This document shows positions 2,723-55,049 of a stretch of DNA of 64,000 bases, piece by piece. The position numbers and the translations under genes were made by a program. Numbering within the stretch: position 1 is the first letter of the stretch; each line of letters begins with the position of its first letter. Below the pieces are notes generated by a model that had not been told where the DNA came from, ran no database searches, and saw nothing but the letters and a program-made list of their open reading frames with translations. Origin of the DNA: Pirellulaceae bacterium (GTDB lineage Bacteria > Planctomycetota > Planctomycetia > Pirellulales > Pirellulaceae); the NCBI GenBank assembly GCA_965233625.1, contig OZ247499.1, forward strand, positions 4,884,419 to 4,948,418. The letters are read 5' to 3'.

Positions 2723-3589
2723 TTGAACGATAAGATTCGAATTTCCCTGCTGCGCGGTGTCTGCCAGCTTCCGGCGTATGTTGCGCATCACCGGGGTTTC
2801 TTCACGCGGGAAGGTATCGATTCATCCGTCAGCATCGCGCCGACTGCGTGGTTGATTCCGGATCAGCTTGCCAGGGGGGAAACGGACTTTGCGGTGATTC
2901 CGTGGACTCGTGTGGCGGTCGCCAGCAGTGAGTCTCCGCTGGTTCTTCTCTCTGGATCAGGCTGTGAAGAGGCGGCGGTGGTTGTGCGGGCGGGTCTGAC
3001 CGTTGATGAGGTGCGGTCCGTCGCAGTGCCCCGCGAAGGTGGCATGAAGGACCTGACCGCCATGGGGCTGCTTGAGAGTCTGAACTGGTCCCGGGACAAG
3101 GTGCAGCAGTTGCGGTTCCCTTCCGGCGACGGCGCCATTATCTGCCTGAACGGCAAAGGCTCTGACGCGGCAAGCATGATCGAGCCCTACGCAACGATGA
3201 TGGAAGTTGTCGCGGGATGTACCGTTGTCCGCCGGACCGGTGACCTCTGGCCGGGGGCGCCTGGCTGCTCTCTGGCGACCAGCGCTGCCATGTTGAAGGC
3301 TGCACCCGATCTTGTGCAACGTGTTGTGAATGCGTACGCCGCGGCCACAACGTACGTACACAACCACCCCACTGAAGCGGCGGCAACCGGCGCCCCGGTC
3401 ATCGGCGTCCACCCTGATATTTTACTTAAGTCTTTGGATGCGAACCGGCCGGACATCAACGCCGTGCGGAACACCGGCGCGATGGATCAGATTCTGAAGC
3501 TGATGCTGGAGTTGGGGTACGTGGATGAAATCCCGCGTGATTATTCCGATCTAAGTTTTCTCGACCGCGCTCAACAGTGTGCAACGTAG
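2723..3589 (+). CDS. NMT1/THI5-like (SsuA/TauA-type) substrate-binding-fold protein, apparently without a signal peptide
   Basis: The N-terminus IRISLLRGVCQLPAYVAHHRGFFTREGIDSSVSIAPTAWLIPDQLARGETDFAVIPW matches the conserved start of NitT/TauT-family binding proteins. The start codon is uncertain, since the TTG at 2723 is the first in-frame start. The stop overlaps the downstream NRPS-like gene. Confidence 0.5.
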   Translation: MNDKIRISLLRGVCQLPAYVAHHRGFFTREGIDSSVSIAPTAWLIPDQLARGETDFAVIPWTRVAVASSESPLVLLSGSGCEEAAVVVRAGLTVDEVRSVAVPREGGMKDLTAMGLLESLNWSRDKVQQLRFPSGDGAIICLNGKGSDAASMIEPYATMMEVVAGCTVVRRTGDLWPGAPGCSLATSAAMLKAAPDLVQRVVNAYAAATTYVHNHPTEAAATGAPVIGVHPDILLKSLDANRPDINAVRNTGAMDQILKLMLELGYVDEIPRDYSDLSFLDRAQQCAT

Positions 3590-6230
3590 CGCACGCGATG
3601 GCGCTGGAAGCCATGAAGGCAAGTCCGTGAAGACCGCCAGACGCATGCGAACCGTTGTCGAGATGTGGAAGGCGGCCGTCGCCCAGCACCCCGGACGGAC
3701 GGCGGTCGTAGACGGCGCCAGTTCGTTGACCTACTGCGAACTCAACAGCCGCGTGCGTAAATGGGAATCGCGGCTGCGGGCGGTGCGGACGGAGACGGCG
3801 TTCGTCGCTTTGCACTTGCCACACCGGGCAGAGAGCATCGCCGCCCTGCTGGGGATTTTAGCTGCGGGGAGGGCGTTCGTAGCTATCGATCCCGCCACAC
3901 CCGTCACACATCGCTGCGCGCTGCTTGATTATGCGCAGGCACGCGTGGTGATCGGGATGGGAAGTCATGCTGACGAATTACGTGACGCGGGATGGGACGG
4001 CGAATTTATAACCGCAACCGGCGCCGACGCAGTTTCGCCTCAGGAAATGGAAGACGGGGCTTGCGATCTGCAAAGCCGGGCGGCGCTTTGTTTCACGTCC
4101 GGGTCTTCAGGGAATCCCAAAGGTGTGGTGACGCCCCACCGCACGTTTGCTTTTGCCGCGCAAAATCTGCATGCGATGTTCGAGTTCCGGCCGGAGGACC
4201 GGCACGCACTGCTGGCTCCGCTGGCGGTCGCATCAACGCATGCGCAGGTTTTTGCACCGCTGGCCGCAGGGGCGACTATCTGTATGTTGGAGGCGCGCTT
4301 GCACAGTCTCTCTCGTCTGGCCGCCTGGCTTCAGGAGGAAGGCGTCACCACTGTACAGACCGTGCCGTCGCTTGCGCGGGCGCTGTTCAGCGAAGCTGCC
4401 AGCGGCGCCGGCTGGCCAGCAATGCGTGCCTTAAAAACCGGTGGCGAGAGCACGACGATCGCGGATGTGCAACTGTTTGAAAGCGTGCTTCCGGAAGGCG
4501 CCACGCTGATTAACGGGCTGGGAATCACAGAGGCCGGCTGCAATGTGTGCTGGTTCCGCCGGCAGAATGGCTCCAAGCTTGGTGGGCAACTTATGCCCAT
4601 CGGAGTTCCTCCAGATGATATTGAAATTGTCATCGAAAACGCCGAAGGCGCCATCGCTGCCTGCGGAGAGCCTGGGCAGATCGTTGTGCGTTCGCCGATG
4701 TTGCCCACCAGCTATTGGCGCGATCCTGCGAAAACCGCCGCGGTTTATCGTGACCTGCCTGAGCGCGAAGGATGGCGTGAACTTCGTACAGGAGACACCG
4801 GCCGCTGGCGCGATGATGGGCAGCTTGAACATCTGGGCCGGTTGGATCAGACCGTGAATGTGCGAGGACACCGGGTCTGCCTTGTCGAAGTCGAAGCCGC
4901 CCTGAATGACACCGGACTACTATCTGGCGCCGTTGCCTTTACGGAAGATTCCGGCAGCGGAACCCGGTTATGTGCAGCGGTTACCTTCCGGCCCGGCGCA
5001 GAGACGGACGATTCAATTCTGCGGAGCAGGCTGGCGCAGAAGCTGCCCGGCTATATGGTTCCCGCGGTGCTCCAGATTGTTGAACGTCTACCGCGTCTCG
5101 AAAACGGAAAAATCGATCGCAGTCAATTTGCTTCCGGCAACCAATCAGCAGCCGTTGAATTGCCGGCGCCACGCGACGCACTGGAACAGACCTTGCATGG
5201 CCTGTTTAGCCGTGCTCTGCAGAAGAAGCCACTGGCACTGGAAGCTTCCTTCTTTGACGAAGGTGGTGACTCGCTGGTTGCTGCGGCTTTGTTCGCATCG
5301 ATTAAGAGAGTGTTTGACCGCGATCTTCCGCTGACCGATCTGGTGGCGCATCCGTCGGTGAAATCCCTTGCGGAACACATGCGTTCAACCGGAACACAGG
5401 CACACCCGGCCATCACTTTGCTGACACCTTACCCGGAGGAAAATGCGCAGAACATTTTCGTGTGGCCTGGTGCGGGTTCCGACACGTTGGCGCTCTATCC
5501 GCTGGCCCGGAATTTAGGCGCCTCGCACGCAATGTACGGAGTTCAACACCGGGGCGCTGACGGGACACGTCAGTACGATCTGACGGTGGAAGACGCAGCT
5601 TCCCGCGGCGTTCAACTTGTACGCCGCGTCCAGCCACAGGGTCCGTATGCGCTTTGTGGCACATCGTACGGTGGACTTATAGCGCTCGAAGTCGCGCGCA
5701 AATTACAGGTGCAGGGTGAGACCGTCAATTTCCTGGCAATGCTCGATAGCTATTCGCCGGGCTACCCGCGGCGACGCGCCGACCTGGGGTTGCGCGACAG
5801 GCTGGCGCTGTGGAGCCGTAAATTCCGGCCGTTCTCTCAGCGGGATAAACCCGGCCTGGCAGTGCTGCGCAAAGGGTTGCATGAGCAATGGCAGCGTTTT
5901 GTTGCGAGGCGGTTCGTCCAGCGACCAGATCCAGACACGGAGCCGCTGCCGATACCTATCCGGTTCCTCTACTTGCAGGAGGCCTGCTTCATTGCCAGCC
6001 GGGCTTACCGTCCTGCCGACTATCACGGAGAGGTCCACTTCTACACGGTTGCAGAGCCTACGAATACGAGGTTCTTTGAACGTGACGCCGCGCATGGATG
6101 GTCCCAATATCTCAAGGGCGCCCTACATATCGAGACCATTCCCGGCAGGCACTCGCAGCACATTAAAGAGCCACACGTGGCCGCACTCGCGGAGAAACTT
6201 CGCAACCGGCTCAATGAGTTACGGGAGTGA
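3579..6230 (+). CDS. NRPS-like single module: adenylation (AMP-binding) - PCP - thioesterase
   Basis: The adenylation core motifs are FTSGSSGNPKGVV (A3), TGD...GRLDQTVNVRGHRV (A7/A8) and NGKIDR (A10). The PCP carries FFDEGGDSL. The C-terminal alpha/beta-hydrolase TE carries GTSYGG (GxSxG). The start is either the GTG at 3579, overlapping the upstream gene, or the ATG at 3645. Confidence 0.85.
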   Translation: MQRSARDGAGSHEGKSVKTARRMRTVVEMWKAAVAQHPGRTAVVDGASSLTYCELNSRVRKWESRLRAVRTETAFVALHLPHRAESIAALLGILAAGRAFVAIDPATPVTHRCALLDYAQARVVIGMGSHADELRDAGWDGEFITATGADAVSPQEMEDGACDLQSRAALCFTSGSSGNPKGVVTPHRTFAFAAQNLHAMFEFRPEDRHALLAPLAVASTHAQVFAPLAAGATICMLEARLHSLSRLAAWLQEEGVTTVQTVPSLARALFSEAASGAGWPAMRALKTGGESTTIADVQLFESVLPEGATLINGLGITEAGCNVCWFRRQNGSKLGGQLMPIGVPPDDIEIVIENAEGAIAACGEPGQIVVRSPMLPTSYWRDPAKTAAVYRDLPEREGWRELRTGDTGRWRDDGQLEHLGRLDQTVNVRGHRVCLVEVEAALNDTGLLSGAVAFTEDSGSGTRLCAAVTFRPGAETDDSILRSRLAQKLPGYMVPAVLQIVERLPRLENGKIDRSQFASGNQSAAVELPAPRDALEQTLHGLFSRALQKKPLALEASFFDEGGDSLVAAALFASIKRVFDRDLPLTDLVAHPSVKSLAEHMRSTGTQAHPAITLLTPYPEENAQNIFVWPGAGSDTLALYPLARNLGASHAMYGVQHRGADGTRQYDLTVEDAASRGVQLVRRVQPQGPYALCGTSYGGLIALEVARKLQVQGETVNFLAMLDSYSPGYPRRRADLGLRDRLALWSRKFRPFSQRDKPGLAVLRKGLHEQWQRFVARRFVQRPDPDTEPLPIPIRFLYLQEACFIASRAYRPADYHGEVHFYTVAEPTNTRFFERDAAHGWSQYLKGALHIETIPGRHSQHIKEPHVAALAEKLRNRLNELRE

Positions 6231-6327: not shown

Positions 6328-7338
6328 ATGTTTGACAAACTAAAAAGCAGATTCGCTAGAGCCACCCGTCGGCCTCAAAGCGATGTTGAGCCAGGGGACC
6401 TGGAATTTTTCGGACTCAACAATCTGTGCCGCCTGGCGAGGATTAGAAGTTATTGGCAACACCGCCAGGATCTGCGAGACAGGCAGCAGGCCTACGCAAA
6501 CGATCTACCGCAGCTATTGCGTGAAAATGGTGACAGCGGCAGTTCTTCCATTCGCCTGAAAGACGGGTATGCAATCTACACGCGCAAAGATCTACCGCAC
6601 CTGGACCGCGTTTATGAGGAAGCGGAAGAGTTTATCGCATTGCGGGGCGGCAAGCCGCGAGAGCCGGGAAACCGCGCCTTCATCAAAGATCTTATCGAAC
6701 CGGGCGACCTCGAGCGATTTCCGTCGTTCCTCGACTTTGCCACCAGTTCTGCTGTGGTCGAGCCGGTCTGTCACAGCATGAAAATGGTGCCTCGACTTTC
6801 GGACCTGGTGCCTCCTCCGGTCCGCTTGACCGAAAGCACCATCCAGGGCCAGGTCGCGGAAGGCGAGTATTTTACGTCTCAGCTGTTTCATCTGGACTTC
6901 CACGACAAACCGGTTGTTTACGTCATCCTGCTGCTTAGGGATGTAGGCCCCCAGAGCGGTCCTTTCTGCTTCTTGCCCAGCAGCGTTTCCGCCCGGGTTG
7001 CGCGCGAACTGAAGTATGGAAAACGGAACATCCCGTATCGACTGACGGACGAACAGGTGGCGAGCGTTGTTGATGAAGATGAAATCATTAGATTCGAAGG
7101 CAGCCGGGGCGACGTTCTCTTTCTGGAGTCGAACGCATGCTTTCACTTTGGCAGCCGCGACTGTCACGTTCCCCGTTACCAGTTGATGATCGCCTATGTC
7201 AGCCCCTGCCGGACAGACTTCTCCGATCTCTACATGGACCGCAATCATCTGCCAGCTTCCCCTTCAGACTCGCGACTACGGCAGATGCTCTTTCGCAGCT
7301 TGCCCAATCACAGCCGCAAGTCGAAGACTCCGTCGTAA
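6328..7338 (+). CDS. hypothetical protein, possibly a PhyH-like Fe(II)/2-oxoglutarate-dependent dioxygenase
   Basis: HLDFHD (HxD) and a downstream FHFGSRDCH are compatible with a 2-His-1-carboxylate facial triad. The gene lies immediately downstream of the NRPS-like gene on the same strand. The assignment is weak. Confidence 0.4.
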   Translation: MFDKLKSRFARATRRPQSDVEPGDLEFFGLNNLCRLARIRSYWQHRQDLRDRQQAYANDLPQLLRENGDSGSSSIRLKDGYAIYTRKDLPHLDRVYEEAEEFIALRGGKPREPGNRAFIKDLIEPGDLERFPSFLDFATSSAVVEPVCHSMKMVPRLSDLVPPPVRLTESTIQGQVAEGEYFTSQLFHLDFHDKPVVYVILLLRDVGPQSGPFCFLPSSVSARVARELKYGKRNIPYRLTDEQVASVVDEDEIIRFEGSRGDVLFLESNACFHFGSRDCHVPRYQLMIAYVSPCRTDFSDLYMDRNHLPASPSDSRLRQMLFRSLPNHSRKSKTPS

Positions 7339-7578
7339 ACAACTGCCACGCCTTTCGCTTAAAGATTTAGAAACCAGCCGCCGTGCGAAATTGCCGCGGC
7401 TGCCAGCGTGATGAGGATGGCGCCAGAGATGGTCCAGACCAGCATCTTGCGCTTCAGGCAATGTTCTTCATGTTGTTGCTGCATGATTCACGCCTCCGAT
7501 CCACGCGTTTACGACCTTCGATTCCCGTCCGACAGTCTGTTAAGCGCAGACGGTGACGATGTGTTACGGTGGAAGCCT

Positions 7579-7992
7579 ATGGCCACACATCAGCAGTTCT
7601 TAGACGCAATCGCCGCCGCGCCGGATGATCCGGCGCCTTGCTGGATGTATGCGGACTGGCTGGAAGAGCATGGAAATCCGCTATGTCATGCGTGGCGAAA
7701 CGGAATGACGCGCGTTCGATTACGTACAGACTACTCTCGCCTTCACGAGGATGGTGGCAATGGTGATGGGTTTGGCTTTGGCGATGGTATAGGCTCTGGC
7801 TCCGGCGATGGCTCCGGCAATGGCGTTGCCTCTGGCTATGGCTATCCGTTATGTTCTGGCGCTGGCTTTGGCGATGGCGCTGCTTTTGGCTACGGTTATG
7901 ACATTGGTCCTTCTAGTGGGGACGGCTACGGCTACGGCAAAGGCGATGGCGATGGCTTCGGCAATGAAATCAGTGCCGGCTCCTTTAGATGA
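7579..7992 (+). CDS. TIGR02996-like 'repeat-companion' N-terminal domain protein with a Gly/Asp/Tyr-rich low-complexity tail
   Basis: FLDAIAAAPDDPAPCWMYADWLEEHGNPLCHAW matches the planctomycete 'LxAIxAxPDDDxPRLVYADWLEExGDP' signature. The remainder consists of GDGxG/GYGYG repeats. The ATG at 7579 was chosen because the 5' part of the ORF, rich in Cys, looks non-coding. Confidence 0.55.
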   Translation: MATHQQFLDAIAAAPDDPAPCWMYADWLEEHGNPLCHAWRNGMTRVRLRTDYSRLHEDGGNGDGFGFGDGIGSGSGDGSGNGVASGYGYPLCSGAGFGDGAAFGYGYDIGPSSGDGYGYGKGDGDGFGNEISAGSFR

Positions 7993-8079
7993 GCAACACG
8001 CCCGCTCAAAACAAAAGCAGTCACGACCCGGAAGTCGTGACTGCATCGAGAACCTGTTCGTGAGGCTTACCTTCCGCGG

Positions 8080-11000
8080 TTAGGCGGCGGCTAGTTGACG
8101 GCGTTGGCCGGCGGCTGCGATCCATTCCTGCACTTCTGTCAGGTCGGGCTTCTTACCGTTGCGGACAATGCGGATGCCTTCTTTGGTCTGGCAGAAGGGT
8201 TTCACTTTGGCGAACAGCGCGGTGGCCGATTCGGCAGCCAGTTGCGCCGCGGTGGTTACGCCGCATGCGACCAGAATCTGTGCGTCGTGGCCGCGTAGCC
8301 CCGGCGTGCAACAGACCAGTCTGGCCTGCGCCTGCCAGTCGCGGACGTGCGACGCCTTCACGCGCCGCTGGTTCAGCCGGTCGGCAACTTCCACGGCGTC
8401 TGCATTGAGCAGATCGTCCACGGTATAGATACCCACGGCCTCAAGCCGGGCAGCGGTCTTCGGACCAATCGAAGGTGCGGCGGCGATTTCCTGTTCGCGG
8501 CTGAGGTAGAAGCGGAGTTCCGCCGGCTCGGATACCGCCGGTGTGCTCTCGCGGCGGGTGGTTGAACGTGCTTCACGCTCGCGGGAAGCGTACTCCCGTG
8601 CGTCGCGTTCACGGGCGTCGCGTTCACGCCGCTGGCGTTGCCGTTCCGCGCGGCGTGCTTCACGCTGGCGGCTCCCACGTTCGCTGCGACTGCGGTGCGA
8701 ACTACTGCGGGAACTGCTGGAACGTGAACTGCTTGAACGCGAACTGCTCGAACGGGAGCTGCTGCCGTTACGCGTGGTTGCATAACGCGAGTCGCCGTCG
8801 CTGTCTTCGTCGCGGGTCCGCAGCCCTTCATAGGCTTCGTTGCGGAGCCGGCTGTACTGGCTGCTACGATGCGTGCGGCCATTGCGCGAGCTGCGCCAGG
8901 AAGCATGCCGCCACGAAGTACCGCCGCCCTTGATCCAGCGCGTTAAACGGTCGATCTCGGCCGTCGTGCCCGACCGCACCAGACGCGAGCCTTCGGGCGT
9001 TGCGACAAATTCTTCCAGCATCGCCTGCAAGTTGCCTGGACGAATGCTTGCCAGTTGCTGGCCGTCGTAAATCCGGCAGGCGTACAAAATGCGGGCGTCG
9101 TACGAGCGGAGGTTCCGCACTTCGCACATCAGCCGCGACATACCCTGCCAGCGCGAAACCGTCGAGTGCTTCACGTTGGGACGGGAAAGACGTTCAGCCA
9201 GTTCACCGGCATTGGCGTGCAACAGGTCTTCGACCGTATAGACGTCCAGGTCGCGTAACTGGTTAGCGACCGCCGGCTCGAGAAAAGGGATCTGGGTTAC
9301 CTCATCGCGGGTGCGGAGAAAATAACCGTCTTCGTATTGCGTTTCACGCTGCCGGGCCGAAGCCGGTTCGTACTGGCGGTGCACCCGCAGCGGAGCTTCG
9401 TCGCGGTGCAGGTGGTACGGACGTGAAGTGCTGTATCGTAGCTTGTGCGAAAACACGGGTAGTGTGCGGTCGTACTGGCGGACGCCGTAGTAAGGCGTGT
9501 GGTACGAAGCCTGCGGTGTGTCCTGCGGCTGCACCGTATAAAGATACGAATCATCGTAGCTGCGACGCGGTGTATGAGCATGCCGCCGCGATGCGCTCCA
9601 GCGGGGCGTGTAGTGGCTGGCCGGGTGATGATGCGGCAGCGCGCCGTGCCAGGCGTATTCGGGCAGCTTGGCCGTGGTTGTCCGGCGGTACTCACCGTAG
9701 TAGTACGGGCGCTGTGCCGCGCGGTAATCGTATTCGTCCGCCCGGTGATGCGGATAACGCGGCCCAGCGTACGAACGCACGCCACGGGCAGGCGTTGTCA
9801 CGGGCAGGTTACGCACAGGGGCGCCGTACGATTTCATCAGGTCGGCGATCTCACGCTGCGACGTCAGCAGCACAATCTGCCAGCCGCGCGAAGCATAATC
9901 GCACAGCAGTTCCGCAGCCGCCCGGTGGCAGTGCGAGGGCAGATGGCGGAAGGCGTCGTCCAGCAGGACCGGCGGCTGTTGCTGCTGCCGCGAACGGTCG
10001 CTGGCCAAGGCCAGGCAGAGGCTGAGTTTGACCAGATCACGCGAACCGGCCGAAAGCACATTGGCGTTGTGATACATGCCGGTGTTGTCTTCAACGCGGA
10101 TCGAACGGCTGTCGCGATCCACGGTGATCCGCACCAGTTCTCCGCCGGTCAGCCGGTCGAGATTCTGCGATGCTTCCGCCGTAACCGGATGCGTCTGACG
10201 GGTGACGATCCGGCGGAGCGATGCGGCGAAATCTTCGCGGGCGATCACTGCCTGGCGGACGCTGGCGCCAACGCGTTCGAGTTCTGCACGGCAGTGGTCG
10301 ATGCGGTTCTGATGTTCGTTCCAGCGGTGGTGTTCAAAGCGGGCGAGTTCCGCACGGAGCGAATCCAGTTCGGCGTTGGCCGCTTCGATGCTGCGTGCAA
10401 GCTGCGAAGCATGCGTGCGCAGATCGTGCAGATGTTCGCGCTCCAGCGTTTCGCGGCGCTGGGCTTCGTACTCTGGCCAGTGGACATCAGCCGGCTGCAT
10501 GCGGTCGTTGATGTAGTGCCGCTGTGCGGTCAGGCATTCGATCTGACGGGTGGTCTCTTCGATCTTGGCGTGCACGTGATGCAGTTCGCAGTGCAGGCCT
10601 TCGTTCTGAATCACACGCCCGTTGCCACGCATATGCTGGGCAAGGGTGGTGAGTTCCGTCTGCAGCGATTCCAGCACGGGCGTCAGCCGGGTGTACGCAT
10701 CATCGCGGCGCCAGTGGTTGGCCCAGCGGTAGGTGGTGCTGCGGCGGGTCGCCAGTTCGCGGTCGATCTCGTGGGCTTTGCGTTCCAGTTCGGCGCTGTA
10801 GCGTTCTGGATCGTAGTCGTATTCGTCGCGTGCAGCGGGGCGTGACATCTGATCTTCCAGCCGGTCGGCGCGCTGCTGCAAGCTGCTGCGCGAACGGTCA
10901 AGCTGCGCGATCTGATCGTTGAGGAAGTCTACGCACTGCGTTGCGTAACGCGTGGCGGCTTCGTTCTCGCCACGGAGACCTTTCCACCAGTGGGCGATCT

Positions 11001-11778
11001 CTTCTTCAACGCGTTTGATTTCCGCCTCGACACGATGCAGTTCTGCGGTGCGGCTGCGCTGATCCTGTTCGATTACGGCGATCTGATCTTGCAGACGGCC
11101 CCGTGTTGTAACAGCTTCGGCGCGAAGGGCGGCAGCGCTGCGCTGAAGATCGTCCAGCTCAACATGCAACTCGTGGCGCCGGGATTCCAGGTGCTCGACC
11201 TCTGCATCCAGGCTGTCCAGGTGGCGTTCTTCTTCCACCGTGGCTGCGTATTCGTAATAGTGATCGCCGGTGTACGACGTGGTCAGATCGCCGGCGCCGC
11301 GTGCGAGTGTGACGTCGATCAGACGGTCCAGCGAGTATTCTCGCGGGAATTCTACGGCGTAAACGGCCGCGAATTCGGCTTCGTCCATGCCACCCACCCA
11401 GCGCGCTGCGAGATGTTCGCCCGCATCGTAGTGATGGTTGAGCAGGTCGGGCTGATGATGGCGCCCGGAGTAATAGTCTTCGTAGTCGTGCGAAGAGCGG
11501 CTTTCCAGCGTCAGTTCGCCACGCTGTGTGCCATCGTTTACACGGCTGAGCGTTTCCGTACCACGGGGTCCGCTGAGTGTAACGGCGCCGACGGCTTCGC
11601 CCTGGCGTGGCGCCAGAAACCGCAGGCTGGGATCGGCCAGGCCGTACAATACAGCCTGCGTGAAGCGGGCGACGGTTGTTTTCCCGGAGCTTTCCGGGCC
11701 GTAGATAACGTTCAGACCGGCAGCTAAATCATCTAGCTGCAAGCCCAATTCGCTTACATGAATCTGTTGAATTTTCAC
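8080..11778 (-). CDS. SMC/RecF-like ABC-ATPase with a long coiled coil, C-terminal tandem DUF4332-like (HhH-type) domains, and an intervening Arg/Ser-rich tract
   Basis: The GTG start at 11778 is preceded by a perfect SD 'aaggaggg' 8 nt upstream. Walker A is NVIYGPESSGKTTV. A heptad-rich region of about 400 aa follows. The C-terminal head half carries VLLDDAF (Walker B/D-loop) ... SHCH ... VLLTSQRE. Two copies of a domain carrying an 'LIDA'-like motif follow: YTVEDLLHANAGELAERL and YTVDDLLNADAVEVADRL. Between them lies SRSSSSRSSSSRSSSSRSSSHRSRSERGSRQREARRAERQRQRRERDARERDARE. Confidence 0.8.
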   Translation of the reverse strand: MKIQQIHVSELGLQLDDLAAGLNVIYGPESSGKTTVARFTQAVLYGLADPSLRFLAPRQGEAVGAVTLSGPRGTETLSRVNDGTQRGELTLESRSSHDYEDYYSGRHHQPDLLNHHYDAGEHLAARWVGGMDEAEFAAVYAVEFPREYSLDRLIDVTLARGAGDLTTSYTGDHYYEYAATVEEERHLDSLDAEVEHLESRRHELHVELDDLQRSAAALRAEAVTTRGRLQDQIAVIEQDQRSRTAELHRVEAEIKRVEEEIAHWWKGLRGENEAATRYATQCVDFLNDQIAQLDRSRSSLQQRADRLEDQMSRPAARDEYDYDPERYSAELERKAHEIDRELATRRSTTYRWANHWRRDDAYTRLTPVLESLQTELTTLAQHMRGNGRVIQNEGLHCELHHVHAKIEETTRQIECLTAQRHYINDRMQPADVHWPEYEAQRRETLEREHLHDLRTHASQLARSIEAANAELDSLRAELARFEHHRWNEHQNRIDHCRAELERVGASVRQAVIAREDFAASLRRIVTRQTHPVTAEASQNLDRLTGGELVRITVDRDSRSIRVEDNTGMYHNANVLSAGSRDLVKLSLCLALASDRSRQQQQPPVLLDDAFRHLPSHCHRAAAELLCDYASRGWQIVLLTSQREIADLMKSYGAPVRNLPVTTPARGVRSYAGPRYPHHRADEYDYRAAQRPYYYGEYRRTTTAKLPEYAWHGALPHHHPASHYTPRWSASRRHAHTPRRSYDDSYLYTVQPQDTPQASYHTPYYGVRQYDRTLPVFSHKLRYSTSRPYHLHRDEAPLRVHRQYEPASARQRETQYEDGYFLRTRDEVTQIPFLEPAVANQLRDLDVYTVEDLLHANAGELAERLSRPNVKHSTVSRWQGMSRLMCEVRNLRSYDARILYACRIYDGQQLASIRPGNLQAMLEEFVATPEGSRLVRSGTTAEIDRLTRWIKGGGTSWRHASWRSSRNGRTHRSSQYSRLRNEAYEGLRTRDEDSDGDSRYATTRNGSSSRSSSSRSSSSRSSSSRSSSHRSRSERGSRQREARRAERQRQRRERDARERDAREYASREREARSTTRRESTPAVSEPAELRFYLSREQEIAAAPSIGPKTAARLEAVGIYTVDDLLNADAVEVADRLNQRRVKASHVRDWQAQARLVCCTPGLRGHDAQILVACGVTTAAQLAAESATALFAKVKPFCQTKEGIRIVRNGKKPDLTEVQEWIAAAGQRRQLAAA
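8545..8800 (-). repeat. coding low-complexity Arg/Ser (RS) and Arg/Glu/Asp repeats inside the SMC-like gene
   Basis: The translation reads (S)RSSSS x4 followed by an RE/RD-rich stretch. The same DNA on the plus strand gives repetitive ELLERELLERELLERE. Confidence 0.7.
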
Positions 11779-11988
11779 CGCGGTTTCCCTCCTTAGAAGT
11801 CGCTGAAAACATCCTGTTTTTGAAACAACTGAACCTAGGGCGCGGTACGGGTGACTCCGCGACCGGTACAGCCGATGGGAAACTTTAGGCAAAAGCTGAA
11901 TTTTTTTCCAGATCAATCGAATAGCGTCTGCGGTGCGTTTTGCCGCATAAAACAGCCCTTTGAGAACACCTGCTACTTGGAGATCCAC

Positions 11989-12369
11989 ATGGACTACTTT
12001 GACTTCTTCTTTCCAGAACAGGCGCAAGCCGCCCATCTACGCAGACTTGCCAGCCGGCCGACCGCTGTTGTGCGTTCGTCCACAGACGACGGGCAGGCAG
12101 CCGAGATTCAATCGCTGCGGGAAGATGTGAATTTTCTCACGCTCGTCATCGCGGCGTTACTGCGCCGCTCTACCGAGACCATGAGCATGGCCGACGTGCA
12201 GGACCTTCTGACAGAGATCGACGGACTCGATGGTGTCGCCGATGGCGGGCTGGATACCGGCGTGCTGCGCGGCATTCTTGGTGTGCTGAAGGTGCAGAAG
12301 GAAGAAGAAGCAAAGCCAGACCACCCGGCGTTCAACATCAAAACAACACCGCGCTACCGCAACAGGTAA
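11989..12369 (+). CDS. hypothetical small protein (126 aa), divergent from the SMC-like ATPase gene
   Basis: The ATG at 11989 is preceded by 'ggag' 9 nt upstream. No motifs were recognised. The gene ends 7 nt before the miniature PRE copy. Confidence 0.35.
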   Translation: MDYFDFFFPEQAQAAHLRRLASRPTAVVRSSTDDGQAAEIQSLREDVNFLTLVIAALLRRSTETMSMADVQDLLTEIDGLDGVADGGLDTGVLRGILGVLKVQKEEEAKPDHPAFNIKTTPRYRNR

Positions 12370-12375
12370 CCTGGC

Positions 12376-12430
12376 ACACTAACCCGAAGCTCGCGCTCCG
12401 GGTTAGTGCATGATGCGAAAAACTTGTGTA
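12376..12430. repeat. miniature PRE copy (fused termini only) plus the flanking 'gcgaaaaacttgtgta' motif
   Basis: The sequence 'cactaacccgaag-ctcgcgctccgggttagtg' is the left terminal arm fused to the right terminal arm of the 145-bp element. It is followed by 'catgatgcgaaaaacttgtgtat', the same motif that flanks copies A (17648-17669) and D (49642-49664). Confidence 0.55.
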
Positions 12431-12488
12431 TCCCGCGCACTCAGGGCGCGGGGGCGTTGGGACCGCTGCTCTTCTAAGCCTCGTTCTT

Positions 12489-14177
12489 CTAAGCTTCGTC
12501 CGGCGGATCGATCTTGGCGTCCTGTGCGGCGAGGCGTAGCTTGCCGAGGGCGCGGGCTTCGATCTGGCGGATGCGTTCTTTGGTCACGCCCATTTCGGCG
12601 CCGACTTCTTTCAGCGTCTGCGGCTCTTGCTTGTGGTTCAAGCCAAAGCGGCTGACGATGATCTTCTTCTCGCGGTCATCCAGCTTGGAAAGGATACGGT
12701 CCACCTGTTCTTTGCGAAGATGCTGAGCCAGCTCTTGCAGATAAAGGTTGGTGCCGTCGTCTTCCTGGCTGGCGAACATTTCGTCCGTCGACGTGCGGAA
12801 GCGGTCGCGGTGTTTGTACTCGTCCGGAATGGTCCGGGCGAAGTTCTTCATAATCGCCCAGCTGGCATACGTGCTGAACTTGTTGCCGCGGGCATAGTCG
12901 AACTTTTCAACCGCGCGGATCAGCGACATGTTGCCATCGCTTACCAGTGGGAAGAAATCTTCCGTCGGCGAAACGTGCCGCTTGGCGATCGATACGACCA
13001 GCCGCAGATTGGCTTTGATGATCTGGTTTTTCGTGGCTAACGCCTGCGAGTACAGATCTTCAATTTGCTGCATGACCGCGGTTTTCGCCCGCGAGGGGTC
13101 CAGCGTCTCACGCAGTTTGCTGGCTTTGTGCTTCAGATAGTTGAAGCGGCGGAACAGGTGATACTCCTGCTCACGGACCAGCAACGGTGTTTCGTACAGA
13201 GACGCCAGGTACTGTGGCAGCCCGGCCGGAACACGCGTCTTACGTGGTTTGGTTTCCGGTTCTGGCATCGGCGCCAGGATTTCTTCCTCGTTGGCTGCAT
13301 CTTCGAACGTTTCGTTATAGATGTAGTCCAGGGGCAGGTCGAGAATCCGCTTCGCACGGACTTCGTTCACAATACGGTGAATGCTGCCCGGCGTGCGGCA
13401 GTACTTCTTGGCCAGCTTCTCAATGCTATCGCCGCTGCGCATCTGGCGGTGCTGCGAGTAGATGGAGTTTTTGGCTTCCTCTGTGAGGGGGCCGGTCTGG
13501 CCGGGGAAGACCGCCATGGTCGGATGTTCTTCGTCAAACTGCCGGATGGTGTAGCGGATGGTTTCGACGCTGCGGCCCTTGCGGCTTGCGATGCGGCGGG
13601 TGATGTCCGCCGGGCAGCCGCCATCGAGCACCATCTGACGGGCCATCGCGATAATCTCATCGCGGTCTTCGTCCGTCATCTGGCTGAAGCGTTCGCCGCG
13701 TTTGACGCGTTCTTTGTTGTGCTGCTGGAAGTATTCCACGCTGCTCTGCAAAAAGCCTACACGTTTGCGACCACCAAAGATGAAACGGCGGCTGGTTAAT
13801 CCTTTGTCACGCCAGCGCGAAATCGTCTTGGTGGAGACATTAAACATGCGGCTGACTTCGTCGAGCGTCAGCACGGGTTCGGCAATTTCATCCACGCTGA
13901 TATCGGCCGAGTCGGAAAGATCTTCCAGGAACAGCCGCAGATCGTGGTGCGCAACATCGCCCGGGATGGGTTCACCGGCTGCGTTGTCGCCGTCTTCACC
14001 TGCAAACCCGGTCACGCGGAACCGCAGATAGCTGAAAGGGTATTCGCGTTTGGGGTCCAGTTCGCGGAGTAGTTTCTCGGTGCGTTCGAGCTGATCAAAT
14101 TTTGTGTCGCGCGGTGCGTAACGGGTCTGTTCGTCACGCAACTGGCGGATGACTGTGTTTTTGTAATCGGAATGCAT
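12489..14177 (-). CDS. rpoD: RNA polymerase sigma-70 factor (principal sigma, RpoD/SigA-like) with a long N-terminal extension
   Basis: Region 2 is present as LRLVVSIAKRHVSPTEDFFPLVSDGNMSLIRAVEKFDYARGNKFSTYASWAIMKNF. Regions 3 and 4 are present as LDDREKKIIVSRFGLNHKQEPQTLKEVGAEMGVTKERIRQIEARALGKLR. The ATG at 14177 is the MHSDYK start. Confidence 0.9.
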   Translation of the reverse strand: MHSDYKNTVIRQLRDEQTRYAPRDTKFDQLERTEKLLRELDPKREYPFSYLRFRVTGFAGEDGDNAAGEPIPGDVAHHDLRLFLEDLSDSADISVDEIAEPVLTLDEVSRMFNVSTKTISRWRDKGLTSRRFIFGGRKRVGFLQSSVEYFQQHNKERVKRGERFSQMTDEDRDEIIAMARQMVLDGGCPADITRRIASRKGRSVETIRYTIRQFDEEHPTMAVFPGQTGPLTEEAKNSIYSQHRQMRSGDSIEKLAKKYCRTPGSIHRIVNEVRAKRILDLPLDYIYNETFEDAANEEEILAPMPEPETKPRKTRVPAGLPQYLASLYETPLLVREQEYHLFRRFNYLKHKASKLRETLDPSRAKTAVMQQIEDLYSQALATKNQIIKANLRLVVSIAKRHVSPTEDFFPLVSDGNMSLIRAVEKFDYARGNKFSTYASWAIMKNFARTIPDEYKHRDRFRTSTDEMFASQEDDGTNLYLQELAQHLRKEQVDRILSKLDDREKKIIVSRFGLNHKQEPQTLKEVGAEMGVTKERIRQIEARALGKLRLAAQDAKIDPPDEA

Positions 14178-14982
14178 AATGCACCTCTTCCTTTGGGCCG
14201 GCGCCTGAAACCGGACCCGCAGATAACTTAGGCGGCGTTCCCTGCGACTCCCATCGCTCCACCTAAGTCCCATACCTGGGCGTGTGGTCTGTCCCAGACC
14301 ACCGTGACCGGCAGCTTAAAGCTACCGCTGTATTTGCTTCAGCAGCGACGTGGCTGCGAATGATTCAATTGAGCTAAATCGTCGTTGAAATGACTTGTGC
14401 CAAAATGACGTAACGGATGCTTGTTGTGATGAGAATGAGCAAAGGGTGGGCCGGGTGTTCAATTATCTGTGTCTTACAAGACACTTTTGTCCGTAGGGAT
14501 CGATTCCGGCGCGGGGCTTCTACTAGGTATACGCTGGACATCCAGCTTTGTTTCAAATTGTTCGCTGTGTTTCCACTGATTTATTCCCAAAGTCACCGTA
14601 ACACTAACTGCTTCAAACGGTTGCGAGTGGCCGGAATAAACCGGTTTCCGGGTGGAATTTTCCAGGTGACGAGGTCTTCGCCACCTTAAAAAAGACTTGC
14701 TCCGGGTGAGTGTGCTGCTACGCGTTTAATGCAAAGGGTGTTAGTAAACGATGGCAATGAAATCAGCTAGCAATACGTGCTACCGATGGAAACTGCATGT
14801 ACTTTGCGGATGACGTGATGAATGTTTTGGTTGAACTTCGATCGCCAATACCGTCGATGTAACCGTTACATACGACACCTCTGGTCGCAGCCTACTGATA
14901 TTGGCAGGGGTTATTCGCGGCGACCGTGTATTTATTGGACGCATGTGGCGCGTTTCTGGTTACCAGATTGGCGAAAAAAATC

Positions 14983-31095: not shown

Positions 31096-31157
31096 CTGCC
31101 ATGCTTACGCGGGTAATACCCATACTCCAAACTCCCTCGCTTCCGGGAAACTGTGAA

Positions 31158-32843
31158 ATGTCAAACGCACTATTACTCGCCGATACGATGCAGGTGCTGA
31201 TTTTCATCGCCATCGGCGGCATCGCTGCGGCGGTGATGTTCTTTGGCTTCGTGCTGTTGTTGATGAAGCAGTACAAACGCTGCCCCAGTAACCGGCTGCT
31301 GGTCATCTACGGTAAGACAGGCCGTGGGCAGGCGTCGCGGACCATTCACGGCGGCGCCGCCTTCGTGTGGCCGCTGGTGCAGGATTACGCCTATCTGAGC
31401 CTGGAGCCGATTCAGATTGAAGTGCCGCTGCGTGGCGCCTTGTCTGCGGAAAACATCCGCGTGAATGTGCCCAGCGTGTTCACTGTAGCCATCGACGTGA
31501 AACCAGAAGTCATGCAGAACGCCGCCGTCCGTCTGCTGGGTCTGACCGTGGGCGAAATCCGCAAGCAGGCAGAGGAAATCATCTTCGGTCAGCTGCGTCA
31601 GGTGATCGCTTCCATGCAGATTGACCAGATCAACCGCGACCGTGAAACCTTCCTGCAGCACATTCAGGACTCGCTGGAGCCGGAACTGAATAAGGTGGGT
31701 ATGAGCCTGATCAACGTGAACATCACGGACATCACCGACGAATCGGGCTACATCGACGCCATCGGTCAGAAGGCTGCTTCGCAAGCGGTCCAACAGGCCC
31801 GTGGTGATGTGGCCGACAACGAGAAGATGGGTGAAACGCGCGTCGCCGCCGCCGAACGCGACAAAGCAATTCAGGTCGCTGCCGCACGCCGCGACATGGC
31901 GATTGGAACGCGCGAGGCGGAACGCGATCAGTCCATCAAGGTCGCCAACCTGGAAAAGGAACAGACCATTGGTGAAAAGCAGGCGTCGTTCCAGCGTGAA
32001 GCAGAAGTGAAAGACGCCGAACGCGGCATGCGTATTCAGGTTGCCGAAGCCGATGCTGCCGCCATCGACGGCGAAAACATCTCCCAGGCCAAAGTCGCCG
32101 CTTCGGAAGCAGAACTGGCAGTCAAGAAGGCGGACGCTTATCAACAAGGTGAAACGCGCAAACGCGAAGCACAAGCGGCCGTGCTGGAAGCCGAATACCG
32201 CGCCATGGCCAAAGCCGCCATCGCTGACGCCGAACGCGTCGAAGCCGAAGAACGCGCCAAGCTGGAGGCGCCCGCCAAAGCGGAAAAAGCCAAGATGATT
32301 GTCGACGCCGAGGCTGACGCAGAGCGTGTCCGCATCGCCGCGAAGGCAGAAGCCGACGCCCTGTTCGCCAAGCTGGATGCCGAAGCCCGCGGTCAGTACG
32401 AAATCCTGGCCAAGAAGGGCGAAGGTCTCCGCGAAATCGTCTCTGCCTGTGGCGGTTCGAAAGAAGCCTTCCAGATGCTGCTGCTGGAACACATGGACAA
32501 CCTGGCCGAAGCCTCGGCCAAAGCCATCTCCAACATCCAGTTCGATAAGATCGTGGTCTGGGAGAACGGCGGCGGGAACGGCAAGAGCAACACGTCGAAC
32601 TTCCTGTCGGGCATGGCCAACTCGCTACCGCCCATGCTGCAAGTGATGAAAGACATCGGCGGCGTGGAACTGCCTGAGTCCCTGATCAAACTCCAGGGCG
32701 AAGAACCCGCCGGCCACGTCGCTTCCACCAACGGCGCCAGCCCCAACGGCCCTAAACCTCGGGCGGAAGCATCGCCTGCGGAAGAAAGCCACGAGAACGA
32801 AGAAGCCGCTAACGAGCCCGACGGCAGCACCGGCCCAGTGTAG
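31158..32843 (+). CDS. flotillin (SPFH/band-7 domain, FloT/YuaG-like)
   Basis: An N-terminal TM helix is followed by the SPFH domain (LLVIYGKTGRGQASRTIHGGAAFVWPLVQDYAYLSLEPIQIEV...). Then comes a long Ala/Glu-rich 'flotillin repeat' coiled coil (EAERD.. AKAEADA..). Confidence 0.85.
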   Translation: MSNALLLADTMQVLIFIAIGGIAAAVMFFGFVLLLMKQYKRCPSNRLLVIYGKTGRGQASRTIHGGAAFVWPLVQDYAYLSLEPIQIEVPLRGALSAENIRVNVPSVFTVAIDVKPEVMQNAAVRLLGLTVGEIRKQAEEIIFGQLRQVIASMQIDQINRDRETFLQHIQDSLEPELNKVGMSLINVNITDITDESGYIDAIGQKAASQAVQQARGDVADNEKMGETRVAAAERDKAIQVAAARRDMAIGTREAERDQSIKVANLEKEQTIGEKQASFQREAEVKDAERGMRIQVAEADAAAIDGENISQAKVAASEAELAVKKADAYQQGETRKREAQAAVLEAEYRAMAKAAIADAERVEAEERAKLEAPAKAEKAKMIVDAEADAERVRIAAKAEADALFAKLDAEARGQYEILAKKGEGLREIVSACGGSKEAFQMLLLEHMDNLAEASAKAISNIQFDKIVVWENGGGNGKSNTSNFLSGMANSLPPMLQVMKDIGGVELPESLIKLQGEEPAGHVASTNGASPNGPKPRAEASPAEESHENEEAANEPDGSTGPV

Positions 32844-55001: not shown

Positions 55002-55049
55002 ATCGCAGCATGTCTGTAAGCTTTCCCACTGCTTTCAACCAGAACAACT

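Follow-up and report, generated by a model that had tools for sequence, protein, structure and literature searches.

A chromosomal Planctomycetota gene for a predicted Rad50-branch ATPase with tandem DUF4332 domains and an Arg/Ser-rich linker

Mre11-Rad50 complexes contact DNA through their heads, their coiled coils, and the partner subunit. SbcE (YhaN) of Bacillus subtilis has a role in double-strand break repair and lacks a CxxC motif (PMC2811018), and RecN of Escherichia coli is degraded by ClpXP by way of short C-terminal signals (PMC10714372). In the published literature, we found no paper describing the architecture analyzed here, an ATPase of this type followed by tandem DUF4332 domains. 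It is encoded in the window, a 64,000-nt stretch of the genome of a Pirellulaceae bacterium.

A stand-alone gene and its family

The gene is a complete coding sequence of 1,232 amino acids plus stop codon on the minus strand (8080..11778), within a maximal ORF at 8080-12036; an identical protein is present in a public collection (P0001). As the preliminary description had noted, a Shine-Dalgarno sequence precedes the GTG start: it reads AAGGAGG, lies 9 nt upstream (11788..11794, minus strand), and is identical in two relatives (loci L081 and L082). The GTG, the Shine-Dalgarno sequence, and a noncoding leader of ∼150 nt are kept in the two closest relatives, and the indels upstream of the GTG in that comparison do not come in multiples of three, evidence for the GTG at 11778 as the start. 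The leader, a conserved 5′ leader or promoter region (11779..11925, minus strand), shares ∼80% identity with the sequence upstream of the gene for P0002, and this similarity persists although the P0002 gene has a different upstream neighbor. In a predicted fold, a UUUCCCU-like stretch of the leader pairs with the Shine-Dalgarno sequence (in three sequences, without real covariation). Downstream, a consensus scan located a strong intrinsic terminator-like hairpin with a 12-bp stem, seven GC pairs, and a T-run (8017..8044, minus strand), 36 nt 3′ of the stop codon. The gene is real, stand-alone, chromosomal, and monocistronic, with its own Shine-Dalgarno sequence and its own terminator. The divergent small ORF reported beside it (11989..12369) exists, but its association with the gene did not hold in relatives: it was absent beside the closest relative examined and in 80 inspected loci, and it had no Pfam match.

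A survey of the fusion, proposed at the outset, returned 1,475 representatives with E ≤ 1e-30. The best 150 of these all have E values below 1e-153 and for the most part align over the full profile, giving a family of at least 150 mostly full-length representatives at 50% identity. At least 515 genomic matches were confirmed, and all 80 inspected loci belong to Planctomycetota; this is a large uncharacterized family, seen here only in that phylum. No neighbor gene is conserved across the 80 loci and the window. Even relatives 72% and 68% identical to the window protein have different neighborhoods (a divergent nuo operon in L081 and other flanking genes in L082). Linker lengths cluster by genus and neighbors are shared only within a genus, a pattern that, together with the restriction of the loci to Planctomycetota, looks like vertical inheritance rather than an island. 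Ser/Thr kinases adjoin the gene in 6 of the 80 loci, probably by chance, since planctomycete genomes encode many such kinases.

ATPase head and coiled coil

Structure prediction and profile comparisons identify residues 1-660 as a probable ABC ATPase of the Rad50/SbcC/YhaN class, with a coiled coil splitting the head. AF2 modeled the N-terminal half of the head (residues 1-172; 11263..11778, minus strand) with pLDDT ∼90 and the C-terminal half (residues 545-660; 9799..10146, minus strand) with pLDDT >90. A profile built from the fusion family only matched both Rad50 lobes in the PDB (E 9e-9 for the N lobe and 9e-7 for the C lobe), and one that included YhaN-type relatives matched SbcC at 1.9e-25 and Rad50 at 6e-23. 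Foldseek on the AF2 model ranked Rad50 best (E 2.6e-14), then LmuB, SMC, JetC, and SbcC. Nonfusion relatives found with the family profile are mostly PF13514/AAA_27 proteins (E 8e-50 to 2e-11); the window protein itself falls under the Pfam gathering thresholds (22.8 bits against 40 for SMC_N, 20.1 against 22 for AAA_27). The HMM check suggested in the preliminary description, which had called the protein SMC/RecF-like, found an SMC-superfamily ABC fold, but the profiles group it with the Rad50/SbcC and YhaN/SbcE (AAA_27) branch and not with canonical SMC or RecF. Within the Rad50/SbcC branch, we take the ATPase part to be a divergent YhaN/SbcE-like protein.

Between the head halves, AF2 predicts an antiparallel coiled coil (residues 173-544; 10147..11262, minus strand) with helices at 173-312, 324-355, 361-426, 435-524, and 531-544, an apex near 313-360, and a break at 427-434. 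The coiled coil previously proposed is therefore present, at ∼370 rather than ∼400 residues. Whether it contained a hinge had been left to structure prediction; the model has a coiled coil without a hinge domain, hinge families are absent from the Pfam matches, and the coiled coil holds no CxxC zinc hook.

The earlier claim of a complete ATPase held for the fold but not for all of the catalytic motifs. Walker A (GPESSGKTT, residues 27-35; 11674-11700) retains its GK[ST] in 72 of 81 relatives, and the window protein also carries a signature-like LSAGSRD (residues 575-581; 10036-10056) and a Walker B PVLLDD (residues 603-608; 9955-9972). The H-loop reported earlier is contradicted by Gln641 (9856-9858, within TSQRE), which occupies the position where YhaN-type relatives have His. 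Across the 81 relatives, the S.G of the signature is kept in only 13, His occurs at the H-loop in 12, and the residue after Walker B is acidic in roughly half, and the canonical ATP-sandwich mode of hydrolysis may not apply to the whole family.

DUF4332 domains, linkers, and tail

Pfam found two matches to DUF4332 (E 1.8e-35; 122 bits, with a cutoff of 23.2), and the copies share 38% identity across 130 residues (E 1e-31), bearing out the two DUF4332/HhH-type domains first described. Copy 1 (residues 822-951; 8926..9315, minus strand) matches in two stretches and has an AF2 pLDDT of ∼90; copy 2 spans residues 1090-1225 (8104..8511, minus strand). Each domain is built around an (HhH)2-like core, and solved structures matched, at low rmsd, about half of a DUF4332 domain at most. 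The hairpins of copy 2 look canonical (SIGPKTA and LRGHDAQ), whereas copy 1 lacks the hairpin glycines (IPFLEPAVA, against APSIGPKTA in copy 2). The protein ends in a conserved tail, A-x3-R-x-L-x-A-A-COOH, here AGQRRQLAAA (8083..8112, minus strand). All 81 sequences compared end in Ala; 78 of them also have Ala at position −2, 73 have Leu or Ile at −4, and 76 have Arg at −6. In the background set, an AA ending occurs in 13 of 667 ORFs.

Two disordered linkers accompany these domains. Linker 1 (residues 661-821; 9316..9798, minus strand) is rich in Arg (14%), Tyr (14%), Pro (10%), Ala (9%), and His (9%), and its pLDDT is <50 from residue 665 and over residues 1-29 of the modeled fragment; in most relatives, it is instead rich in Pro, Ala, and Val. 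The linker between the copies opens with a disordered Ser/Arg tract (residues 952-1032; 8683..8925, minus strand; pLDDT <40) that includes (SRSSS)n and has part of its coding sequence in an imperfect 15-bp tandem repeat (8711-8764; 3.6 copies, 84% match by TRF). An Arg/Glu/Asp block follows (residues 1033-1074; 8557..8682, minus strand), predicted as one long isolated helix (fragment residues 251-292, pLDDT 62-83), in which a perfect 15-bp repeat of 1.9 copies (8600-8628) encodes RERDA-RERDA. Both the (SRSSS)n and the RE/RD stretch described at the outset lie within residues 952-1088, which hold 19 RS/SR dipeptides.

Arg plus Ser makes up as much as 74% of a 50-residue window and 57% over 100 residues, compared with a maximum of 0.48 and a 99th percentile of 0.46 for 50-residue windows in 667 conserved neighboring ORFs of planctomycete loci; the tract is far outside the local protein background. 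The preliminary description, which held the tract to be exceptional, was right about its composition, but the tract is the extreme of a bias shared by the relatives examined and no one-off. The intercopy linker averages 18.7% Arg and 13.9% Ser in relatives, and in 80 of 80 sequences its Arg content exceeds that of linker 1, although these sequences are phylogenetically related and the P-values therefore overstate their independence. Its net charge is +15 here (family mean +9.6). Tract-length variation, raised earlier as a check, is evident across relatives (linker lengths of 59 to 206 residues), and both length and sequence of the tract differ even among relatives 68-72% identical; the P0002 linker additionally holds a (GHSND)n repeat, and that of P0003 holds two Ser/Arg runs. 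The bias recurs across 80 relatives, and the Arg/Ser linker is neither an artifact nor peculiar to this genome.

Candidate function and related systems

The function that we infer, with middling confidence, is that of a Rad50-branch ATPase with tandem HhH domains, from a chromosomal monocistronic Planctomycetota family, that anchors, bridges, or tethers DNA. ATP bound at the conserved Walker A would drive head-head engagement of a homodimer, which would form or gate a DNA-binding surface as in Rad50/SbcC. The HhH domains would contact the DNA backbone in a sequence-independent way, with copy 2 as the stronger candidate because it keeps the glycine hairpins, and the positively charged linker would add electrostatic affinity and reach. 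In combination, these elements could let the protein hold DNA segments together, for example in double-strand break repair or nucleoid organization. With its many serines, the linker is a plausible phospho-switch, and by analogy with ClpXP control of RecN, the invariant Ala-Ala could plausibly serve as a degron for a protease or as a tail that binds a partner. A DNA-handling ATPase with nucleic acid-binding tails, as proposed in the preliminary description, remains the best reading of the candidate function. Set against it are the H-loop Gln, the missing glycines of copy 1, and the subthreshold SMC_N and AAA_27 scores; an adjacent Mre11/SbcD-like partner, as in SbcCD and SbcEF, is also missing.

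Another reading is a structural protein that compacts nucleoids or bridges DNA, with ATP as a conformational switch at little or no turnover and a protamine- or RS-like linker controlled by Ser phosphorylation; its Tyr/Arg-rich linker 1 (14% of each in this clade) might drive condensates. Walker A is widely kept (72/81) while the signature, post-Walker B acid, and H-loop are mostly degenerate, the cationic linker recurs in all 80 relatives compared, its Arg plus Ser content far exceeds that of neighboring proteins, and Planctomycetota is the only phylum in which the family (at least 515 genomic matches) was found. Kinases adjoin the gene in a few loci, although 6 of 80 is likely chance, and the LSAG and DD kept by the window protein are compatible with hydrolysis. 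We regard this account as possible though doubtful, and it overlaps the tethering reading rather than excluding it. It is unlikely that the tails bind RNA or proteins instead of DNA and act on RNA or transcription complexes in the manner of the NusA AR domains, the (HhH)2 of the RNAP alpha-CTD, or RS domains. RS-type and Arg-rich tracts do bind RNA in eukaryotes, and SR-25 gave a weak compositional match (E 1.3e-3, below threshold); however, Pfam found no RRM, KH, or S1 domain, and copy 2 has the classical GhG-type hairpin for DNA backbones (SIGPKTA). Characterized members of the Rad50/SbcC class, moreover, act on DNA (PMC2811018).

The tract could also lack a specific function, as a neutral low-complexity expansion by slippage of GC-rich 15-bp repeats in a tolerant spacer. 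The repeats that partly encode it, its divergence among 68-72% identical relatives, the runs in P0002 and P0003, and the 59- to 206-residue range fit this idea. What recurs, however, is composition rather than sequence: Arg is enriched over the other disordered linker in 80 of 80 proteins and the mean charge is positive. GC-driven drift alone does not explain the bias, since linker 1 drifts to Pro, Ala, and Val in the same proteins, and we consider neutrality improbable. Least probable is the defense role raised in the preliminary description, in which the protein would be an SMC-like sensor of an antiphage or antiplasmid system (Lamassu LmuB, Wadjet JetC, or a relative) with HhH tails that sense foreign DNA. 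PADLOC models for LmuB do match (E 3.7e-11 and 2.6e-10; JetC, 1.2e-5), and LmuB and JetC structures are among the best Foldseek matches, but the strongest PADLOC stretches are mainly coiled coil (residues 286-613 and 183-383), and Rad50 and SbcC score above the defense SMCs. No LmuA/LmuC, JetABD, or other conserved neighbor occurs in the 80 loci and the window, which argues against a defense operon, as do neighborhoods that differ between close relatives and the vertical, Planctomycetota-only pattern. A DNA-tethering or repair factor is most likely.

Several described systems come closest to the protein. Both C-terminal domains pass the DUF4332 (PF14229) threshold, and their closest known counterparts include the (HhH)2 modules of the RAD51/RadA N-terminal domain, NusA AR1/AR2, and Y-family polymerase thumbs; here they form a tandem duplicate fused to an ABC ATPase, with copy 1 devoid of hairpin glycines. 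The SR-domain identity claimed earlier stood for composition, with predicted disorder and an adjoining RE/RD block, alongside the RS domains of SR splicing factors, the lamin B receptor, and protamine-like tracts. It failed otherwise: there is no RRM, the unit is SRSSS and not (RS)n, RSRS being confined to a short run, and the tract shows no sign of an SRPK-type kinase or phosphorylation. The likeness is compositional and not homologous (SR-25, 18.8 bits against a cutoff of 40).

Like the window protein, RecN is a stand-alone SMC-like ATPase without a hinge domain, and its C-terminal ClpXP signals parallel the L-x-A-A-COOH tail; its coiled coil is much shorter (PMC10714372), it has no HhH tails, profiles favor Rad50/SbcC/YhaN, and RecN is absent among the PDB matches listed. 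Rad50/SbcC matches both head lobes best, by structure and by profile, and has the same antiparallel coiled coil between head halves, but the window protein lacks the zinc hook and an adjacent nuclease partner, catalytic motifs are partly degenerate in its family, and HhH domains are fused at its C terminus. YhaN/SbcE (AAA_27, PF13514), whose members make up most of what the fusion-family profile retrieves, is the closest sequence family. It shares the motifs LSxG(T/S)R, hhhhDD, and Q-hhhh-T, as well as long coiled coils without a CxxC hook (PMC2811018). Compared with YhaN/SbcE, the window protein scores just 20.1 bits against the AAA_27 cutoff of 22, lacks the central hydrophobic domain and a nearby gene for an SbcD-like YhaO/SbcF partner, has Gln for His at the H-loop, and carries ∼570 additional C-terminal residues that make up two DUF4332 domains and two disordered linkers.

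The ATPase head and its coiled coil

Taken alone, the 1232-aa product of the minus-strand gene at 8080-11778, which is identical to a protein in the public collection, scored below the Pfam cut-offs for both SMC_N (22.8 bits vs. 40) and AAA_27 (PF13514; 20.1 bits vs. 22). Single-sequence searches of the PDB likewise returned marginal matches only, and profiles were needed for the assignment. A profile built from ten full-length members of the family retrieved non-fusion relatives at E values of 8e-50 to 2e-11, mostly PF13514 proteins (AAA_27, "YhaN"). Relatives of the window protein such as P0004 carry this domain as well. Against the PDB, the fusion-family profile matched the N-lobe (9e-9) and the C-lobe (9e-7) of Rad50; when YhaN-like sequences were added, E. 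coli SbcC (1.9e-25) and Rad50 (6e-23) came out ahead of SMC, SMC5, and JetC. The AF2 model of residues 1-700 was confident over the head (pLDDT about 90), and Foldseek searches with it gave Rad50 as the best match (2.6e-14), followed by LmuB, SMC heads, JetC, and SbcC. The preliminary description had read an SMC-like ATPase with a coiled coil from the sequence and had proposed checking it by HMMs and structure prediction, including a look for a hinge. SMC_N remained subthreshold and no hinge was found, but the ABC-ATPase fold was recovered by the profiles, by AF2, and by Foldseek. The single-sequence HMMs are weak, and it is the profile searches together with the structure that settle the assignment to the Rad50/SMC class of the SMC superfamily. 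Judged by sequence, the window protein is a divergent branch of YhaN/SbcE (AAA_27) and not a core member.

The window protein has a Walker A motif of the form GxxxxGK[ST] (GPESSGKTT, residues 27-35), a signature-type motif (LSAGSRD, residues 575-581), and a Walker B motif with the second acid (PVLLDD, residues 603-608) in the Asp-Asp form typical of YhaN relatives. The initial claim of a complete ATPase with an H-loop holds for these three motifs but fails for the H-loop His, which is replaced by Gln641 (TSQRE, where YhaN relatives have TCH). We then took a census of these motifs in an alignment of 81 sequences (80 genome loci and the window), scoring the positions of window residues 575-578 (signature), 607-608 (Walker B), and 641 (H-loop). 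Of the 81, 72 retain GK[ST] in Walker A, only 13 retain S.G in the signature, and 12 have the H-loop His; roughly half carry an acidic residue directly behind the Walker B acid, and Thr, Gly, or Gln is frequent there. The window protein is among the minority retaining motifs. Since Walker A is kept while the signature, the H-loop, and the acid after Walker B are mostly or often lost, many members may be ATP-binding switches, and the alignment suggests that the family as a whole is more like such a switch than a uniformly competent hydrolase.

In the AF2 model, the head fold is split by an antiparallel coiled coil (residues 173-544). Its N-terminal arm is a single 140-residue helix, the returning arm is interrupted at residues 427-434, and the apex, around residues 313-360, consists of only a short helix and low-confidence loops. 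We found no SMC hinge among the Pfam matches of the window protein and no CxxC hook in residues 173-544. The apex sequence is hydrophilic (RPAARDEYDYDPERYS...), without a central hydrophobic domain as in SbcE/YhaN; the central segments of the YhaN-like proteins P0012 and P0013 are hydrophobic. Several relatives (P0004, P0005-P0009, and P0010) carry a Cys/His-rich insert (WCxCxDHPH; CRCQEH; CQCPTC; A1 columns about 541-560), which may be a metal-binding site. It lies not at the apex but at the break in the returning arm (residues 427-434 of the window protein, window about 10477-10500), and the window protein and its two closest relatives are without it. The window clade also has Tyr/His/Asp-rich loop insertions in the head and apex (residues 96-125, 164-178, and 318-330).

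The DUF4332 domains and the Arg/Ser linker

The two DUF4332/HhH-type domains that had been proposed for the C-terminal part were confirmed. Pfam places DUF4332 (PF14229) on two stretches (E 1.8e-35; 122.2 bits vs. a cut-off of 23.2), with copy 2 spanning model positions 1-121 of 122. At 38% identity (E 1e-31), residues 823-952 and 1091-1220 are a tandem duplication. Both copies were modeled at a pLDDT of about 90 or above (AF2) and are of the (HhH)2 type, with Gly-containing hairpins in copy 2; among solved structures, none aligned at low rmsd over more than about half of a DUF4332 domain. Copy 2 has the classical hairpins, APSIGPKTA and LRGHDAQ, with P1102, I1104, G1105, L1161, R1162, and D1165 invariant in a ten-sequence alignment. 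The corresponding hairpins of copy 1, IPFLEPAVA and LRSYDAR, are without glycines.

The linker between the two copies comprises a disordered S/R tract (residues 952-1032, pLDDT <40) and an R/E/D block forming one isolated helix (residues 1033-1074, pLDDT 62-83; both AF2). An imperfect 15-bp tandem repeat (8711-8764, 3.6 copies, 84% matches) encodes the (SRSSS)n part, and a perfect 15-bp repeat of 1.9 copies (8600-8628) encodes RERDA-RERDA. The possibility that the tract is a sequencing artefact was ruled out: analogous S/R tracts of other length and arrangement occur in the two nearest relatives, which come from another metagenome sample and are 72% and 68% identical, and the 15-bp repeat is imperfect with mixed Ser codons. 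The tract is therefore real, as first supposed. In the 72% relative (P0002; 8001-11843 of its locus, L081), the inter-domain linker holds an extra (GHSND)n/(AHSNG)n tandem repeat, which marks this linker as a repeat-expansion hotspot.

Across the 80 relatives compared, the inter-domain linker varies in length (59 to 206 residues) and defies alignment, yet its composition is consistent. It averages 18.7% Arg and 13.9% Ser, compared with 10.6% and 7.3% in the rest of the protein and 7.2% and 8.0% in linker 1, the segment between the head and copy 1; it carries a net charge of +9.6 on average (the window protein has +15). In every one of the 80 sequences, the inter-domain linker exceeds linker 1 in Arg content, a comparison for which the Wilcoxon P-values overstate independence because the sequences are related. 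We argue for selection on linker composition from the shared direction in all 80 and from the contrast with linker 1 of the same proteins. In the window protein, R+S make up as much as 74% of a 50-aa stretch and 57% of a 100-aa stretch. No other sequence examined is as extreme as this 0.74 per 50 residues. The median of the family is 0.46, with 0.5 or more in a third of its members, and the top value in any 50-residue stretch of 667 conserved neighboring ORFs from the same loci is 0.48.

The preliminary description equated the tract with the SR domains of eukaryotic splicing factors. SR proteins are defined by an RRM plus an RS domain (at least 50 aa, >40% R+S, with consecutive RS/SR dipeptides). 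The window linker has the R+S composition, but the protein as a whole falls outside the SR-protein class: Pfam finds no RRM, which eukaryotic SR proteins have, and the repeat unit is SRSSS with one short RSRS run. The SR-25 Pfam match was below threshold. The likeness to eukaryotic RS domains is compositional only, and our literature search on bacterial RS domains found only eukaryotic accounts.

Linker 1 of the window clade (9316-9798, minus strand) is also disordered and is rich in Tyr, Arg, His, and Pro (Y 14%, R 14%); in most relatives it is P/A/V-rich. A composition of Tyr plus Arg is reminiscent of phase-separating disordered regions. With regard to the Ser-rich linker, a gene for a Ser/Thr protein-kinase-like product lies within 1.5 kb of the family gene in 6 of 80 loci, and in three loci from Planctomycetaceae/Fuerstiella it is convergent and directly downstream (L033 13356-14807, L066 14010-15461, and L074 6064-7515). 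Such kinases are abundant in planctomycete genomes, and so the adjacency is probably due to chance.

Gene boundaries, C-terminal tail, and genomic context

The longest possible minus-strand ORF is 8080-12036; the GTG start codon lies inside it, at 11778. The reported GTG start with a perfect SD stood up: AAGGAGG (11788-11794) lies 9 nt 5' of the GTG, and both are kept, along with ~150 nt upstream, in the two closest relatives (loci L081 and L082), where the genes upstream of the family gene differ. Indels 5' of the GTG are not multiples of three, indicating that the upstream sequence is noncoding. These out-of-frame indels, the conservation of GTG, SD, and leader, and the differing upstream genes together support the GTG start. 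The conserved leader occupies 11779-11925 (minus strand) in the window, 7856-8000 in L081, and about 655-869 in L082. A UUUCCCU-like stretch within it could pair with the SD; with three sequences and no real covariation, a consensus fold of the leader was not claimed as a structure. At the other end, a terminator-like hairpin with a 12-bp stem (8044 to 8017, minus strand) lies 36 nt past the stop codon. A promoter scan found no sigma-70-type site, and Rfam models run over 7300-12600 gave nothing meaningful (one snoRNA-model match, E 0.079).

The protein ends in a conserved tail, A-x3-R-x-[LI]-x-A-A-COOH (8083-8112, minus strand). Across the C termini of the window and 80 family loci, all 81 proteins end in Ala and 78 have Ala at position -2; Leu or Ile occupies -4 in 73, Arg -6 in 76, and Ala -10 in 68. 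In the background set, an AA end occurs in only 13 of 667 ORFs. Such tight conservation anchored at the carboxy terminus implies that the free end is recognized. E. coli RecN is degraded by ClpXP via short C-terminal signals (PMC10714372). As RecN is another SMC-like repair protein, a degron is a reasonable hypothesis; the tail is possibly an ssrA/RecN-like ClpXP degron or a partner-binding tail. An ssrA-like degron would be of the L-A-A type, ending in A-A-COOH; here A-A-COOH stands in 78 of the 81, and the Leu is at -4, not at -3. ARAGORN, run on the window and 60 loci for a tmRNA whose ssrA tag could be set against the tail, detected none.

The fusion had seemed rare in word-indexed searches (13 and then 40 matches), a reading overturned by an exhaustive HMM search and a genome scan. 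The HMM search covered 1.84 billion representatives and gave 1475 matches at E<=1e-30; the best 150 of these were all <1e-153, most of them spanning the whole profile at 1000-1600 aa. There are at least 150 mostly full-length representatives at 50% identity, and in species-representative genomes a pattern scan confirmed no fewer than 515 matches. The phylogenetic survey of the SMC+DUF4332 fusion suggested at the outset thus uncovered a large family, and all 80 retrieved loci are from Planctomycetota (Pirellulaceae, Planctomycetaceae, and one MAG labeled Phycisphaera). Databases name its members "DUF4332 domain-containing protein," "AAA family ATPase," or "YhaN." The MAG locus, L011 (WCIL01000008.1, Phycisphaera sp. 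RhM), is the sole locus of the 80 outside the class Planctomycetia; it is much like the Stieleria loci L017 and L024 in length (1618 vs. 1608 aa), linker lengths, and composition, and its label may therefore be wrong.

To compare neighborhoods, we ran tblastn of all window ORFs against the 80 loci and clustered the ORFs all against all. No neighbor gene was conserved beyond the genus in the 80 loci and the window; the matches were only antisense shadow ORFs and genus-level neighbors (sulfatase-like, dipeptidase-like, DUF1559-like, and Ser/Thr-kinase-like, named by eye from representative sequences). The family gene is thus a stand-alone chromosomal gene, apparently vertically inherited. The gene of the 72%-identical relative is divergent from a nuo operon, and the window gene lies among an ORF without a Pfam match (7408-7992), a small ORF, and a sigma-70 gene. 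The small ORF (11989-12369, plus strand, 126 aa, no Pfam match) had been presented as a divergently transcribed feature of the gene, a link that was not upheld: it was not found beside the closest relative examined or in the 80 loci, and is unrelated to the ATPase gene or no gene at all.

The sigma-70 family gene (12489-14273, minus strand) encodes regions 2 and 4 and a ~400-aa N-terminal extension with weak HTH and Mor-like matches. Elsewhere in the window, secondary metabolism is represented by a stand-alone adenylation-PCP-thioesterase protein (3579-6230, plus strand) and by a type I PKS pair (51156-60326, plus strand), in which a DH-methyltransferase-ACP protein is followed by a KS-AT-KR-ACP-TE protein. 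The gene at 22746-25265 (minus strand) encodes WD40 repeats and, C-terminal to them, a caspase (Peptidase_C14) domain. At 31101-32843 (plus strand) lies the gene of a flotillin-like SPFH/Band 7 protein, whose long helical region, rich in Ala, Glu, and Lys, probably accounts for the high AT skew (0.29) in the 32-34 kb bin. The planctomycete-specific families PSCyt1, PSCyt2, and PSD1 are also present, and identify the window as chromosomal DNA of a planctomycete.

Possible function and comparison with known systems

What is established is how the protein is built and which fold classes it combines, that its linker is disordered, which features are conserved in the family, and that no partner gene accompanies it. 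By analogy with Rad50/SbcC, the heads of a homodimer would engage in an ATP-dependent manner. The HhH domains, copy 2 especially, would bind the DNA backbone nonspecifically, and the cationic linker would contribute electrostatically, possibly under phospho-regulation. By analogy with B. subtilis SbcE/YhaN, such a protein might tether or bridge DNA in double-strand-break repair or nucleoid organization. The full reading, which we consider improbable as a whole, is a Planctomycetota-specific SMC-like nucleoid organizer or repair tether in which phosphorylation of an RS/protamine-like linker tunes DNA engagement, an Ala-Ala degron sets abundance, and most heads are ATP-binding switches and not motors. 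If it were true, the linker would be a prokaryotic counterpart of RS-domain regulation.

Planctomycetota have an unusual cell biology, with condensed nucleoids and, in many lineages, FtsZ-independent division; to our knowledge, few lineage-specific DNA-handling factors are known there. We found no description of the family in the literature searched, where DUF4332 itself occurs in a single paper, and no work pairing SMC-like proteins with planctomycete biology. The family is well defined, with several unusual features that do not contradict known principles. It is notable for being large, apparently vertical, undescribed in the literature found, and equipped with its own HhH-type anchors on a cationic tether. 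SMC-like ATPases usually act on DNA through partner subunits (kleisins, Mre11/SbcD, and LmuA). Can a Rad50-like head work without a nuclease partner, via built-in DNA anchors? Does a compositionally recurrent Arg/Ser disordered linker serve a function in a bacterium? Does the invariant C-terminal Ala-Ala reflect proteolytic control as in RecN?

A defense-type SMC-like system, the other role first considered, would find some support in the PADLOC matches to LmuB, JetC, and PbeC. These matches run mainly through the coiled coil, and we rejected them as evidence of defense. Lamassu/Wadjet effector or partner genes (LmuA/LmuC; JetA/B/D) are not among conserved neighbors in the 80 loci and the window. 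The stand-alone, seemingly vertical character of the gene, together with the coiled-coil nature of the matches, argues against defense of this type. The tether reading also has to be set against the named families it resembles. Canonical SMC proteins (Smc/MukB-type condensins) have a hinge at the apex, which the window protein lacks, and no kleisin or KITE partner gene is conserved beside the family gene at the 80 loci and the window; such partners may be encoded elsewhere. Rad50 has a zinc hook and a nuclease partner, whereas the window protein has no hook and, at the same loci, no adjacent Mre11/SbcD gene.

[quoted passage not shown] The window protein shares the absence of CxxC but has neither this central domain nor the SbcF partner of SbcE. 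It is, then, a core member of no named family, and its putative mode is most like that of a Rad50/SbcC/SbcE-type tether with built-in DNA anchors.
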